In this document: positions 17,805-40,933 of the stretch, in pieces | Layout of the letters: every line of letters starts with the position of its first letter | How positions within the stretch are numbered: the first letter of the stretch is position 1 | Source: an uncultured Bacilli bacterium | Lineage (GTDB): Bacteria; Bacillota_I; Bacilli_A; RF39; UBA660 | Assembly (NCBI GenBank): GCA_947629815.1 | Contig: CANRFG010000002.1 | Coordinates: forward strand, 7,539 to 71,538 | Reading direction: 5' to 3' | DNA length: 64,000 nt | Notes under the pieces: model-generated | The model's input: the letters and a program-made list of their open reading frames with translations, nothing else | The model's database searches: none | What the model was told of the DNA's origin: nothing | Made by a program: the position numbers and the translations under genes

Positions 17805-17881
17805 GGCGACGTAGCTCAGTTGGCTAGAGCACTCGGTTCATACCCGATAGGTCGAGAGTTCGAATCTCCCCGTCGCTACCA
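17805..17881 (+). tRNA. tRNA-Met (anticodon CAT; elongator-like; tRNA-Ile-lysidine not excluded)
   Basis: Hand-folded cloverleaf: acceptor GGCGACG/CGTCGCT, anticodon loop TTCATAC, T-loop TTCGAAT, encoded CCA. It closely resembles Bacillus elongator tRNA-Met. One A-C mismatch is present in the T-stem. Confidence 0.75.
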
Positions 17882-23602: not shown

Positions 23603-23677
23603 TGCCCTATAGCCAAGCGGTAAGGCATCGGACTCTGACTCCGACATGCGTTAGTTCGAATCTAACTAGGGCAGCCA
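23603..23677 (+). tRNA. tRNA-Gln (anticodon CTG)
   Basis: Cloverleaf with U1-A72 and acceptor TGCCCTA/TAGGGCA. It is nearly identical in backbone to Bacillus tRNA-Gln, but the anticodon loop CTCTGAC has C34 rather than U34. CCA is encoded. Confidence 0.8.
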
Positions 23678-25439: not shown

Positions 25440-25516
25440 GGCCTGTTGGTGAAGTGGCTTAACACATTGCCCTCTCAAGGCAACATTCACGAGTTCGAAT
25501 CTCGTACAGGTCACCA
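25440..25516 (+). tRNA. tRNA-Glu (anticodon CTC)
   Basis: Cloverleaf: acceptor GGCCTGT/ACAGGTC, anticodon stem TTGCC/GGCAA with loop CTCTCAA, T-loop TTCGAAT, encoded CCA. Confidence 0.78.
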
Positions 25517-27420: not shown

Positions 27421-27489
27421 TATCCAACTAATATTTAACACCTTGAAAAAAACGACAATTTTTGATAAAATTAGTTGCGTAGTAGGTGT

Positions 27490-29439
27490 GATATGAAAGA
27501 AAAGATAAAAAAAATATTAAAAAATTATAGTTTATTATTGTTTATAATTATTTCTATGTTATATTTAGAAACTATTTTCCATATATTTTGTTTTAAAAAA
27601 TTTGATTTTTTAAATTTAATAAATATATATTTATTTACAATACCAATTTCAATAATTACATATTTTATATCAAGTTTATTTAATAAAAAAGCAAACAAAG
27701 TATTAACATTTATATTTACAATATTATATACTTTACTTTTTGTTTCACAATTTATTTATTTTAACTTATTTAACGCTATATATGGTCCAAATTCAATTGC
27801 TTTTGTAAATCAAGTATTAGTAGTATTGAATGAGGTTTTTGCCACTATATTACAAAATTGGTATGTAATATTATTGATGATTTTGCCTTTAATATTTTTA
27901 ATAGTATTTAATAATAAATTATATTTTGAATTTAATAAGAAAAAAAACATAATTATATCAATAATATACTTTATAATTTTTTATTTAGTAAGTATTTTAT
28001 CAATTAATATAAATAAAAACACTTTATATTGTAATTACAACTTATACTATAAAATAAAACAACCTGTTTTAACTTCAAACAATTTAGGGCTTACAACAAG
28101 TTTTAGATTAGAGGTACAAAGAGCAATATTTGGTTTTAAAGAACAAGCAATTATATCAAGTAATGAAAAATTAAATATAGATGAAAATAAAGAATACAAT
28201 ATGATGGATATAAATTTTGACTATCTTAATACTTTAACAAAAGATAATGATATTATGACTTTAAATAATTTCTTTCAAAATAGACAACCTACTGAAAAAA
28301 ACGAATATACAGGATTATTTAAAGATAAAAACTTAATATTTATTGTAGCAGAATCTTTAGATAAAAGTGTAATATCTAAAGATATAACTCCTACATTATA
28401 TAAATTATCAAAAGAAAGTATACAATTTAATAATTACTATGTTCCTTTATATCCTGGAAGTACAGGGGCTGGTGAATATATGACAGGTTGGGGGCTTTTA
28501 GCTTCTAATGTAGCAAAACTAGACCAACTTTCACAAACAATAGGTAACAACAATGAATTTAGATTAAATAATAGTCTTAAAAAATTAGGATATAAAACTC
28601 ATGCTTATCATGATTATTATGGATATTTTTATCATAGAGATGAATATTTTAAAAACGATAATTACGATGATTATTCATTCTGTGATACAGGTTTGGTATC
28701 ATCATGTGAAGAATTCAGAGGTAGCGATTTAGAAATGATTCAAAATAGTATTAAAAACTATATAAATGATGATAAATTCTTCACATATTATTTAACTGTT
28801 AGTGGGCATGGTAGTTATAGTTATAATGAAAGTTCAATAATAAGAAAAAATTATGACAAAGTTAAAAATCTAAGTTATTCAGATGATATTAAAGGTTTGT
28901 TAGCATCAAATATTGAGTTAGATAAGGCATTGGAATATTTAGTTAAAACTTTAGAAGAAAACAACTTACTAGATGATACAGTAATAGTTATAACACCTGA
29001 CCATTATCCTTACTATTTAAAACCAAATCAATTTAATGAATTAGATAGTGAAGATAGAACAGATAAGTTTTTATTACATCATCAAAATTTAATCATTTGG
29101 AATAATGATAATTCTAATATAGCTACTGATAAATATATTTCTAATATAGATATATTACCAACTATTTTAAATTTATTTGGAATTGAATATGATTCTAGAT
29201 TATTTATAGGAAGAGATGCTTTATCAAATTCACCATCAACTGTTATTCTTTCAGACCAAAGTTGGATAAATGAATATGGTAGTTATGATACAGTAGAAGA
29301 TAGTTTCAAAGAAAAGAAACCTGTTGATAGTAATTATGTTGAAAGTATGAATCAAACAATCAATACTTATTTTAGTATTTCTAATATGATTCAAGAAAAA
29401 AAATATTATAATTTCATATTTGAAAACATAAAAGTGTAA
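27490..29439 (+). CDS. LTA-synthase family protein (N-terminal polytopic membrane domain plus extracellular sulfatase-like domain)
   Basis: Five TM helices followed by a sulfatase-fold domain (LIFIVAESLD, VITPDHYPYY). The ATG at 27490 has RBS AGGTGTG. Confidence 0.75.
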   Translation, partial: DMKEKIKKILKNYSLLLFIIISMLYLETIFHIFCFKKFDFLNLINIYLFTIPISIITYFISSLFNKKANKVLTFIFTILYTLLFVSQFIYFNLFNAIYGPNSIAFVNQVLVVLNEVFATILQNWYVILLMILPLIFLIVFNNKLYFEFNKKKNIIISIIYFIIFYLVSILSININKNTLYCNYNLYYKIKQPVLTSNNLGLTTSFRLEVQRAIFGFKEQAIISSNEKLNIDENKEYNMMDINFDYLNTLTKDNDIMTLNNFFQNRQPTEKNEYTGLFKDKNLIFIVAESLDKSVISKDITPTLYKLSKESIQFNNYYVPLYPGSTGAGEYMTGWGLLASNVAKLDQLSQTIGNNNEFRLNNSLKKLGYKTHAYHDYYGYFYHRDEYFKNDNYDDYSFCDTGLVSSCEEFRGSDLEMIQNSIKNYINDDKFFTYYLTVSGHGSYSYNESSIIRKNYDKVKNLSYSDDIKGLLASNIELDKALEYLVKTLEENNLLDDTVIVITPDHYPYYLKPNQFNELDSEDRTDKFLLHHQNLIIWNNDNSNIATDKYISNIDILPTILNLFGIEYDSRLFIGRDALSNSPSTVILSDQSWINEYGSYDTVEDSFKEKKPVDSNYVESMNQTINTYFSISNMIQEKKYYNFIFENIKV

Positions 29440-29502
29440 ACTAAATATTATTTTTTATAAATTTATAGACTTTTAATATTTAGTATGTTATAATTAAATT
29501 GC

Positions 29503-29671
29503 CTAAAGATAAGAAATCGTCTGTTAAGAAAAACCTACAAATAAACGATTGGGAATCTAATTTATATGTGGTGTTGAATACCTTTTTATAAGGAATCCTA
29601 AAGCCTATAATGTGATGCCCACCTGGTAGACAGGGTTTATCGTTTCGGACGCCTACATCCTTAGGCTTTTT
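29503..29671 (+). ncRNA. candidate structured small RNA (6S/SsrS-like?), 5-prime and 3-prime ends paired in a long-range closing helix, ending in a hairpin and T6 run
   Basis: GC-enriched 170-nt ORF-free segment. The 5-prime GCCTAAaGATaagaaatCGTC pairs with the 3-prime GACGcctacATCcTTAGGC. The T6 run is followed by an independent TTGATT-17-TATAAT promoter for tcdA. Confidence 0.3.
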
Positions 29672-29718
29672 TATTGATTTAAATAGACGATTGTGCTATA
29701 ATTAACAATGGTGAAAGT

Positions 29719-30402
29719 ATGATAGAACAGTTCGAAAGATTAGAACTTCTTGTTGGACAAACTAAGTTAAAAAAAATATTTGATACAACTGTACTTGTTA
29801 TTGGTCTTGGTGGAGTTGGAAGCTATGCTGTTGAAGCATTAGTTCGTTCTGGTATTAAAAAGATTATATTAGTTGATTCAGATAAAATAGATATAACTAA
29901 TTTAAATAGGCAACTTATGACTAACTATAATAATATTGGAAAATATAAAGCAGAGGCCTTAAAAGAAAGAATAAAAACCATTAATAAATATATTGATGTT
30001 GAATGTATAAATGAATTTATTTCAAATGATAATATAGATAAATTATTTGATAGAAAAATTGATTATGTAATTGATGCTTGTGATACAGTAAATACTAAAA
30101 AAGAAATAATTAGAAAATGTGTTAAAAATAAAATTAAATTTATTTCAAGTATGGGCGTTGGAAATAAAATGAATTCTTCTAGATTAAAAATAGTTGATAT
30201 TAGAAAAACGAGTTATGACCCAATATCAAAAATAATTAGAAAAATGATAAAAGATGAAAAAATAAATAGTAAAGTCCCTGTTGTATTTAGTGATGAAATA
30301 CCTATTAAAGTAAAAGAAAAGATTGGTTCAAATTCATTTGTTCCTGCAACAGCAGGATTATTATGCGCAAGTTATGTAATAAATGATATTGTAAAGGATT
30401 GA
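29719..30402 (+). CDS. tcdA: tRNA threonylcarbamoyladenosine dehydratase TcdA (ThiF/MoeB E1-like fold)
   Basis: Rossmann GLGGVGS motif with NLNRQ; 227-aa TcdA/YrvM-type. Confidence 0.75.
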   Translation: MIEQFERLELLVGQTKLKKIFDTTVLVIGLGGVGSYAVEALVRSGIKKIILVDSDKIDITNLNRQLMTNYNNIGKYKAEALKERIKTINKYIDVECINEFISNDNIDKLFDRKIDYVIDACDTVNTKKEIIRKCVKNKIKFISSMGVGNKMNSSRLKIVDIRKTSYDPISKIIRKMIKDEKINSKVPVVFSDEIPIKVKEKIGSNSFVPATAGLLCASYVINDIVKD

Positions 30403-40191: not shown

Positions 40192-40307
40192 ATATAATTT
40201 TTTTAGAAATGATGCATATAATGTATTAAAAGTAAATAGTTTTTATTAAAAAAAATAAAAAACTTTTCAAATTTGACAAAAAAGTGTAAATTTGATATAC
40301 TTGATAT

Positions 40308-40933
40308 ATATTGATTGGCACATTATTCTAGTCAATATGATTTATTAGGAAGACGGGGCTAAAAATCCGTTAAAGAGCATATCTGTGAAACTTTTGGTGT
40401 TTGCTTCTTACGCCCAGTTTGGGGTGAATGCTGGAAGGTAGAGTTATGGGCGCACATAATGGCATATGTTTCCGACCCATTCCTCATGGAGACCTAATCT
40501 TGTGGTAAGCATATACACATACCGTTGACTTGACTTACTACGACTTAGGCTTGAACCTACTTTGTGGCGAAAGTTATGAGTAGTGTAGCTTGTCTTGAGT
40601 GGATATTTGGAACGAATGAACAATTTTAAGTAATTTATAGCTAAGATTATTTAAAAATCGCATTCTGAAATTATGTCTGCAAAAAAGAATTATTAATAAA
40701 TCAGTTGGGGAGGAAATCTCCTAGAGTGTCATTGATATAGGATTGCAGTGTGTACTAAGTGGCAATCGAGTAATATAATAGGTAACTATATATCTGCTTT
40801 TTTAAAGGGGAACCGCAAGTATGGTAACATCTTGTAAGAGCAGGGGAAATCCAACTCGACCTAAGACACAAAGTTAACTATATTAATAGCCAGACAAGAG
40901 TTTTAAAGGGGGAAATTACCCTTTTTATTTTTT
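40308..40933 (+). ncRNA. large structured noncoding RNA, about 625 nt; candidate OLE (ornate large extremophilic) RNA
   Basis: ORF-free on both strands and markedly GC-enriched against a 22-25% GC background. It has its own promoter (TTGACA-17-TATACT at 40273-40301) and intrinsic terminator (AAAGGG-N8-CCCTTT + T-run at 40905-40933). The size matches OLE. A small polytopic membrane protein follows immediately, and nusB-xseA-xseB lie adjacent, which is the conserved OLE/oapA neighbourhood. Confidence 0.45.

Follow-up and report, generated by a model that had tools for sequence, protein, structure and literature searches.

The 64-kb stretch of DNA analysed here (hereafter the window), which originates from an uncultured Bacilli bacterium, contains an intergenic gap of 279 nt (positions 29440-29718) flanked by two protein-coding genes on the plus strand. 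The upstream neighbour, an LtaS-like sulfatase-family gene (27475-29439, plus strand; 654 aa open reading frame, Pfam Sulfatase 2.7e-25), ends with its stop codon at 29439 and lies outside the element described below. The downstream neighbour, tcdA (29719-30402, plus strand; Pfam ThiF 1.2e-43), starts with an ATG at 29719 and is predicted to encode a ThiF-family tRNA threonylcarbamoyladenosine dehydratase of 227 aa, the name TcdA being adopted from the database sources naming its homologues. An earlier interpretation of this DNA, referred to here as the sequence-only reading, had given the length of the gap as 230 nt, which had to be corrected. It had also described part of the gap as richer in GC than its surroundings, and indeed the GC content amounts to 35-37% over positions 29500-29750 versus 13-25% in the flanks.

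The mechanical call of the LtaS-like gene opens at a TTG and yields the 654 aa product, and the corresponding gene on an identical metagenome contig (L001, 775-2721) was called with 648 aa. Based on the latter gene call the true start of the LtaS-like gene is probably located six codons downstream of the mechanical TTG.

Small RNAs of the 6S family, with ssrS of E. coli as the prototype, imitate an open promoter and keep RNA polymerase sequestered. The sequence-only reading had favoured a 6S RNA in the gap and had proposed a search with the respective covariance model and the full Rfam library. The whole window was scanned against Rfam 15 at gathering thresholds, followed by a permissive rescan of positions 29300-29850. 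The 6S/SsrS model RF00013 was found to match positions 29497-29671 on the plus strand with 55.7 bits (gathering score 46.4, E = 2.3e-8 for the whole window), which is the single 6S match in the 64 kb. The match covers the full model (positions 1-187 of 187), its margin over the gathering score being only 9 bits. In the permissive rescan 6S was the only family of note at the element, since no other Rfam family reached E = 1 or better on its strand. A psRNA6 candidate on the opposite strand (12 bits, E = 0.48) was rejected. The predicted transcript of the 6S RNA gene extends from about 29501 to about 29672 and thus comprises roughly 172 nt.

Two further observations concern non-coding RNAs in the wider neighbourhood. 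Three isolated tRNA genes are located on the plus strand upstream of the 6S locus (17805-17878, 23603-23674 and 25440-25513). A full-length OLE (ornate large extremophilic) RNA was detected on the plus strand at 40299-40909 (391 bits), about 10.6 kb downstream of the 6S gene, and an OLE RNA is also present about 1.7 kb upstream of tcdA in a related locus of Acholeplasma sp. CAG:878 (L060, 687-1293; 365 bits). The host appears to belong to a lineage of uncultured gut Bacilli or "Mycoplasmatota" with a very low GC content.

The predicted RNA folds into the long irregular hairpin expected of the family. In the minimum free energy (MFE) fold of positions 29497-29677 the closing stem is formed by a 5' strand at 29501-29523 (29501-29506, 29508-29510 and 29518-29523) and a 3' strand at 29646-29666 (29646-29651, 29657-29659 and 29661-29666), with GCCUAA (29501-29506) pairing with UUAGGC (29661-29666), GAU (29508-29510) with AUC (29657-29659) and CGUCUG (29518-29523) with CGGACG (29646-29651). 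The terminal helix is therefore paired as the sequence-only reading had described it, apart from its beginning, which lies at 29501 and not at about 29503. The closing stem is followed by helix P2, supported by the Rfam alignment and by the MFE fold, in which 29528-29535 (GAAAAACC) pairs with 29634-29641 (GGUUUAUC). The 5' strand of P2 at the same time represents the downstream part of the predicted template for product RNA (pRNA) synthesis.

The 5' strand of the central bubble (29536-29550, UACAAAUAAACGAUU) corresponds in the alignment to the open 5' bubble of RF00013 (16 nt) and is unpaired in the consensus. It is followed by an apical (internal) stem-loop at 29551-29620, closed by GGG (29551-29553) with CCC (29618-29620), and by the 3' bubble strand (29621-29634), which contains a small hairpin formed by CCUG (29622-29625) and CAGG (29631-29634). 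All these elements are located on the plus strand. The unconstrained MFE fold closes part of the 3' bubble unlike the consensus, and the canonical open-bubble fold is less favourable than the MFE by 3.1 kcal/mol.

The MFE of the window RNA is not significantly below that of shuffled sequences (z = -1.66; 11 of 200 shuffles fold as well). Due to this low z-score we did not rely on the fold energy; the significance of the structure is instead based on the covariance-model score and on the covariation among relatives.

Related loci were collected by a genome scan based on a TcdA alignment, which yielded 80 loci mostly from gut metagenome-assembled genomes (MAGs) with TcdA proteins 38-67% identical to that of the window. 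The database sources assign the homologues to uncultured Bacilli, "Mycoplasmatota" and Mollicutes-like MAGs. The exact TcdA protein was found on three ENA metagenome contigs which match the window identically in every shared gene. Rfam 6S matches of 53.3-79.9 bits were detected directly upstream of tcdA in four related loci (L044, L031, L021 and L010), and these together with the window copy served to build a covariance model of our own, termed R1, which scores the window RNA with 165.7 bits. Already in the alignment of these five copies RNAalifold reported compensatory changes in 16 of 43 base pairs. The R1 search of 83 sources returned 40 matches with scores of 49-200 bits, all on the tcdA strand, corresponding to 37 distinct sequences. 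Uncultured low-GC gut Bacilli hence carry the same RNA at 36 distinct related loci, where TcdA is 45-65% identical to that of the window.

The covariation in the orthologous intergenic regions, which the sequence-only reading had suggested to inspect, proved to be extensive. In the R1-fitted alignment of the 37 distinct sequences 35 of the 43 base pairs change on both sides, with up to six pair types per pair among relatives, and standard pairs occupy 89.9% of the cells, compared to 30-52% if the partners are slid by one to three columns. None of 500 shuffles reached any of the observed covariation measures; as the shuffles ignore relatedness, these counts are not to be read as probabilities. 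All 14 model pairs of the closing stem (helix 1) are compensatory, and 92.3% of its cells are paired. P2 (AAAACC/GGUUU(U)) is paired in 94% across relatives and the GGG/CCC with its neighbouring apical pairs in 98.2%. The 8-bp middle apical helix shows compensatory changes in eight out of eight pairs, and the hairpin of the 3' bubble (helix 6) in four of six with 96.3% of its cells paired. Since the R1-fitted alignment leans towards the model, a second alignment of 33 sequences was made by plain MAFFT without fitting to the model. From this alignment RNAalifold recovered the outer nine pairs of the closing stem, the middle helix and the apical hairpin, with compensatory changes in 22 of 26 pairs.

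These data bear on the simplest objection, namely that AT-rich intergenic DNA merely resembles RF00013 by chance. Such a view could point to the fold-energy z-score of only -1.66 and to the frequency of promoter-like hexamers in DNA of this composition (five found versus 3.3 expected). However, the E-value of 2.3e-8 refers to the whole window, and 36 further loci, with TcdA proteins only 45-65% identical to that of the window, have kept both sequence and structure, compensatory changes included. In view of the slid controls and of the large number of independent pair types chance pairing appears implausible, and we regard a fortuitous match as having a negligible probability. The initial idea of a 6S RNA is consequently borne out by the full-length RF00013 match together with the covariation across 37 distinct sequences.

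The 6S RNA gene (29497-29671) appears to possess its own promoter. A promoter-like site at 29466-29494 on the plus strand, which was absent from the list of the sequence-only reading, consists of a -35-like TAGACT (29466-29471), a 17-nt spacer and an extended -10 element TGtTATAAT (TG at 29486-29487, TATAAT at 29489-29494), and scored 10 of 12 in the promoter scan, with the TG extension. With few exceptions the 37 distinct loci show a TGnTATAAT-like extended -10 element that ends 2-3 nt ahead of the model match. From this fixed spacing the transcription start of the 6S RNA is predicted near G29501. The combination of an extended -10 with a poor -35 element is found in the promoter of the 6S gene in the window as well as in the related loci. 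In E. coli, promoters with these features are reported to show the highest sensitivity to 6S RNA, a hint at a potential autoregulation of the 6S gene.

At the 3' end a terminator-like structure was predicted by the terminator scan at 29651-29672 on the plus strand, consisting of T6 (29667-29672) preceded by a local 5-bp hairpin (29651-29666), by the closing stem or by both. The hairpin and T6 noted by the sequence-only reading are thus both present; however, the local hairpin and the long-range closing stem compete for the same UUAGGC segment, and the former is not conserved among relatives, the conserved 3' end in most of them being the closing stem followed by a T-run.

The location of the element 60 nt downstream of the LtaS-like stop codon on the same strand and its T-run end could also be explained by a 3'-UTR structure or terminator of the LtaS-like gene, an alternative that the sequence-only reading had considered. 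However, a tblastn search did not detect an LtaS-like gene within 3 kb upstream of the 6S RNA at any locus outside the species of the window, which is represented by the window and the three identical contigs. The upstream gene differs between the loci, with HisS-like, phosphoglucosamine-mutase-like, pilin-like, FtsK-like and other open reading frames being recognised by eye from their translations, while tcdA is constant downstream. Taking furthermore into account that a conserved promoter separates the stop codon from the RNA, we rejected the assignment to the LtaS-like gene as very improbable. In L031 the HisS-like gene (1321-2697; identified by eye) is located directly upstream of the 6S RNA, which recalls the gene order of B. 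subtilis, hisS-aspS-bsrA-yrvM.

In the window the 6S RNA ends 47 nt before the ATG of tcdA. In 30 of the 36 distinct relatives the start codon of tcdA follows the RNA at a distance of 16-85 nt; in the remaining six loci the distance is 440-1140 nt. The shorter spacers fall into two types. Spacers of 42-85 nt, as in the window, carry a TGnTATAAT-like motif between the T-run and the Shine-Dalgarno sequence (L010, L021, L031, L076, L044 and others). In 18 loci with spacers of 16-36 nt (L056, L042, L077, L064, L041, L062, L074, L078 and ten further ones) the Shine-Dalgarno sequence follows right after the T-run and no TGnTATAAT-like motif was detected.

The tcdA promoter-like site identified by the scan in the window, TTGATT-17-TGcTATAAT (plus strand, TG at 29694-29695), corresponds to the one proposed by the sequence-only reading, but is positioned at 29674-29702 and not at 29676-29704. 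Its -10 element ends 7 nt before the Shine-Dalgarno sequence GGTGA (29710-29714). Such a separate promoter-like TGnTATAAT, with the -10 element ending about 6-8 nt before the Shine-Dalgarno GGTGA, was observed in the window and in L010, L021, L031 and L076. An mRNA originating from this site would start at or just before the ribosome-binding site of tcdA.

Since 16-36 nt do not leave room for a promoter, expression of tcdA in the 18 short-spacer relatives seems to depend entirely on read-through from the 6S promoter. As tcdA lacks room for its own promoter in many relatives, the 6S RNA may represent the 5' part of a longer transcript that needs processing.

The tight and conserved linkage to tcdA on the same strand, and in particular the 18 relatives in which the T-run is followed by the tcdA start without space for a promoter, might be taken to indicate a cis-acting 5' leader of tcdA, that is, an attenuator or riboswitch controlling read-through rather than a trans-acting RNA. 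However, the element matches the full-length 6S model whereas no cis-regulatory Rfam family was matched; the window and the closest 6S-bearing relatives have a separate TGnTATAAT between the T-run and tcdA; and the RNA is found as far as 440-1140 nt from tcdA in six loci. Moreover, a genuine 6S RNA is co-transcribed with its downstream gene in E. coli (ssrS with ygfA), so that read-through is compatible with a 6S identity. A function as a cis-acting leader therefore seems quite unlikely.

Thus, we consider the element between the LtaS-like gene and tcdA to be a 6S (SsrS) RNA gene of the Bacillus 6S-1 type, with a probability of roughly 93% judged from the sequence comparisons. The assignment to the 6S-1 rather than the 6S-2 subtype is suggested by synteny and structural features. 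6S RNA is a kind of RNA that is already known, and routine Rfam annotation would find the element.

The linkage of 6S RNA and tcdA is specific to a clade and not general. In 14 loci among those closest in TcdA sequence (L006-L009, L011-L016, L018, L019, L022 and L024; 56-67% identity) no 6S RNA was detected up to 3 kb from tcdA using R1 with the filters switched off (best E = 0.09). Rfam scans of 20 loci that are more distant, among them Effusibacillus, Selenomonas, Clostridiaceae, Erysipelotrichaceae, Fusobacteria and Acholeplasma-like MAGs, likewise revealed no 6S RNA in the vicinity of tcdA. An Rfam scan of 20 sources detected no 6S RNA in 15 of them. In the 14 close lineages the 6S gene was presumably either moved to another position or lost.

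The candidate template for the synthesis of the pRNA, GAAAAACCUAC (29528-29538), does not vary among the five Rfam-confirmed copies. The pattern AAAAC-C-N-AC is conserved in the clade and the C(N)AC motif of the 5' bubble is kept in relatives. The pRNA is predicted to start opposite C29538, plus or minus one position, which would result in a pRNA with the sequence 5'-GUAGGUUUUUC. The pRNA predicted from C29538 starts with G and contains GG at positions 4/5. The known pRNAs of E. coli, A. aeolicus and R. sphaeroides likewise have GG at these positions (PMC8414754). Where relatives have C-U-A-A, shifting the start by one base in the 3' direction would yield a pRNA that begins with A and has GG at positions 5/6.

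In B. subtilis 6S-1 RNA a small hairpin is already present in the 3' bubble (PMC8876501), and a hairpin opposite the 5' bubble has been reported for B. subtilis 6S-1 as well as for the 6S RNAs of lactic acid bacteria (PMC8414754, PMC8876501). [quoted passage not shown]

A candidate counterpart was identified in the window RNA, where 29543-29549 (AAACGAU, plus strand) is complementary to 29639-29645 (AUCGUUU, plus strand). This potential helix crosses P2, the positions 29639-29641 being shared with the 3' strand of P2. When 8-14 nt of the predicted template were blocked, the MFE structure of the window RNA formed exactly this 7-bp helix. Based on these predictions the pairing of 29543-29549 with 29639-29645 may be regarded as a candidate resembling the collapse helix of B. 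subtilis 6S-1.

Every relative contains two segments complementary to each other, for instance ACGAU/AUCGU, GUGAU/AUCAC, AAGAU/AUCUU, AUGAC/GUCAU and GGAU/AUCC, and the alternative helix occurs with at least six different sequences among the relatives. A column-wise search of the R1-fitted alignment did not recover the alternative helix. Because the bubble columns are not homologously aligned, we used duplex prediction for each sequence combined with a permutation of cognate and non-cognate segments. The mean duplex energy of cognate segments was -6.59 kcal/mol compared to -4.02 kcal/mol for non-cognate ones, and none of 10,000 permutations reached the observed mean.

The release switch by a collapse helix has so far been argued mainly from biochemistry with the RNAs of B. 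subtilis and A. aeolicus. By analogy, the following mechanism may be proposed for the window RNA. Transcription of the 6S RNA, driven by its own extended -10 promoter, would start at about G29501 and end at the U-tract around 29672. The RNA would adopt the form of a long irregular hairpin with closing stem, P2, a large central bubble and apical stem, and thereby mimic an open promoter. As growth slows, it would bind and sequester the housekeeping sigma-A RNA polymerase holoenzyme. Upon a nutrient upshift the polymerase would presumably copy the 5' bubble and the P2 strand, starting from C29538, into the pRNA 5'-GUAGGUUUUUC. The product RNA would then invade P2 so that the freed 3' strand could pair with the distal 5' bubble (29543-29549 with 29639-29645), and the collapse of the bubble would release the polymerase. 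We infer this polymerase-sequestering and pRNA-released function from the family membership and the conserved anatomy; expression, polymerase binding, synthesis and exact start of the product RNA, and the refolding are all ascribed to the window RNA by this analogy.

A broader scenario, which we put forward as tentative and rather doubtful, would regard the 6S gene and tcdA as a conserved transcription unit of a large clade of uncultured low-GC gut Bacilli, possibly reaching back to Bacillus, in which tcdA is often expressed by read-through, the collapse helix is under selection and the 6S gene has been relocated or lost in some lineages. If this scenario applied, the level of a t6A-modifying enzyme would be coupled to the 6S promoter, the covariation of the alternative helix would amount to comparative evidence for selection on the collapse-helix release switch, and the absence of the 6S RNA beside tcdA in the closest TcdA relatives would mark its relocation or loss in some lineages.

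The main value of the present analysis lies in the annotation of a 6S gene with its promoter, its ends, its predicted pRNA template and a candidate release switch in uncultured low-GC gut Bacilli. The synteny of Bacillus 6S-1 and tcdA extends to this uncultured clade of Bacilli, and the patchy presence of 6S RNA at the tcdA locus is likewise worth recording. The comparative support for the collapse helix and the apparent co-transcription of 6S RNA and tcdA are modest additions to the biology of 6S RNA; a new kind of element is not involved.

Compared with known representatives, the window RNA agrees with the RF00013 family in its full-length match above the gathering score and in the architecture mimicking an open promoter. 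The apparent co-transcription with the downstream gene in many relatives resembles the situation of ssrS-ygfA in E. coli. In the E. coli 6S RNA, the 3' bubble of the free RNA is unstructured and a long hairpin forms there upon pRNA synthesis, without a collapse helix (PMC8876501, PMC12005410). Unlike the E. coli RNA, the window element looks Bacillus-like owing to its 3'-bubble hairpin and its candidate collapse helix. With the 6S RNAs of lactic acid bacteria it shares the canonical structure, the 3'-bubble hairpin, a TATAAT promoter, a conserved GG in the predicted pRNA and a rho-independent terminator (PMC8414754). However, those genes are located between rarA and uspA (PMC8414754), whereas the window RNA and its relatives lie upstream of tcdA.

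Several features distinguish the window RNA from B. subtilis 6S-1. It is shorter (about 172 nt versus 190 nt) and far more AT-rich, aspS is not its upstream neighbour, and the GG of the predicted pRNA is found at positions 4/5 and not 5/6. Both RNAs nevertheless have in common the closing stem, P2, central bubble and apical stem, and a predicted template started by C, so that the pRNA would begin with G. They furthermore share the position immediately upstream of yrvM/tcdA, yrvM being the tcdA gene of B. subtilis. [quoted passage not shown] (2002) given in PMC3299989, and the position of bsrA near aspS and yrvM (tcdA), which the sequence-only reading had put forward, is confirmed. Finally, the small pre-formed hairpin in the 3' bubble and the potential to form a collapse helix also place the window RNA beside B. 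subtilis 6S-1 (PMC8876501).
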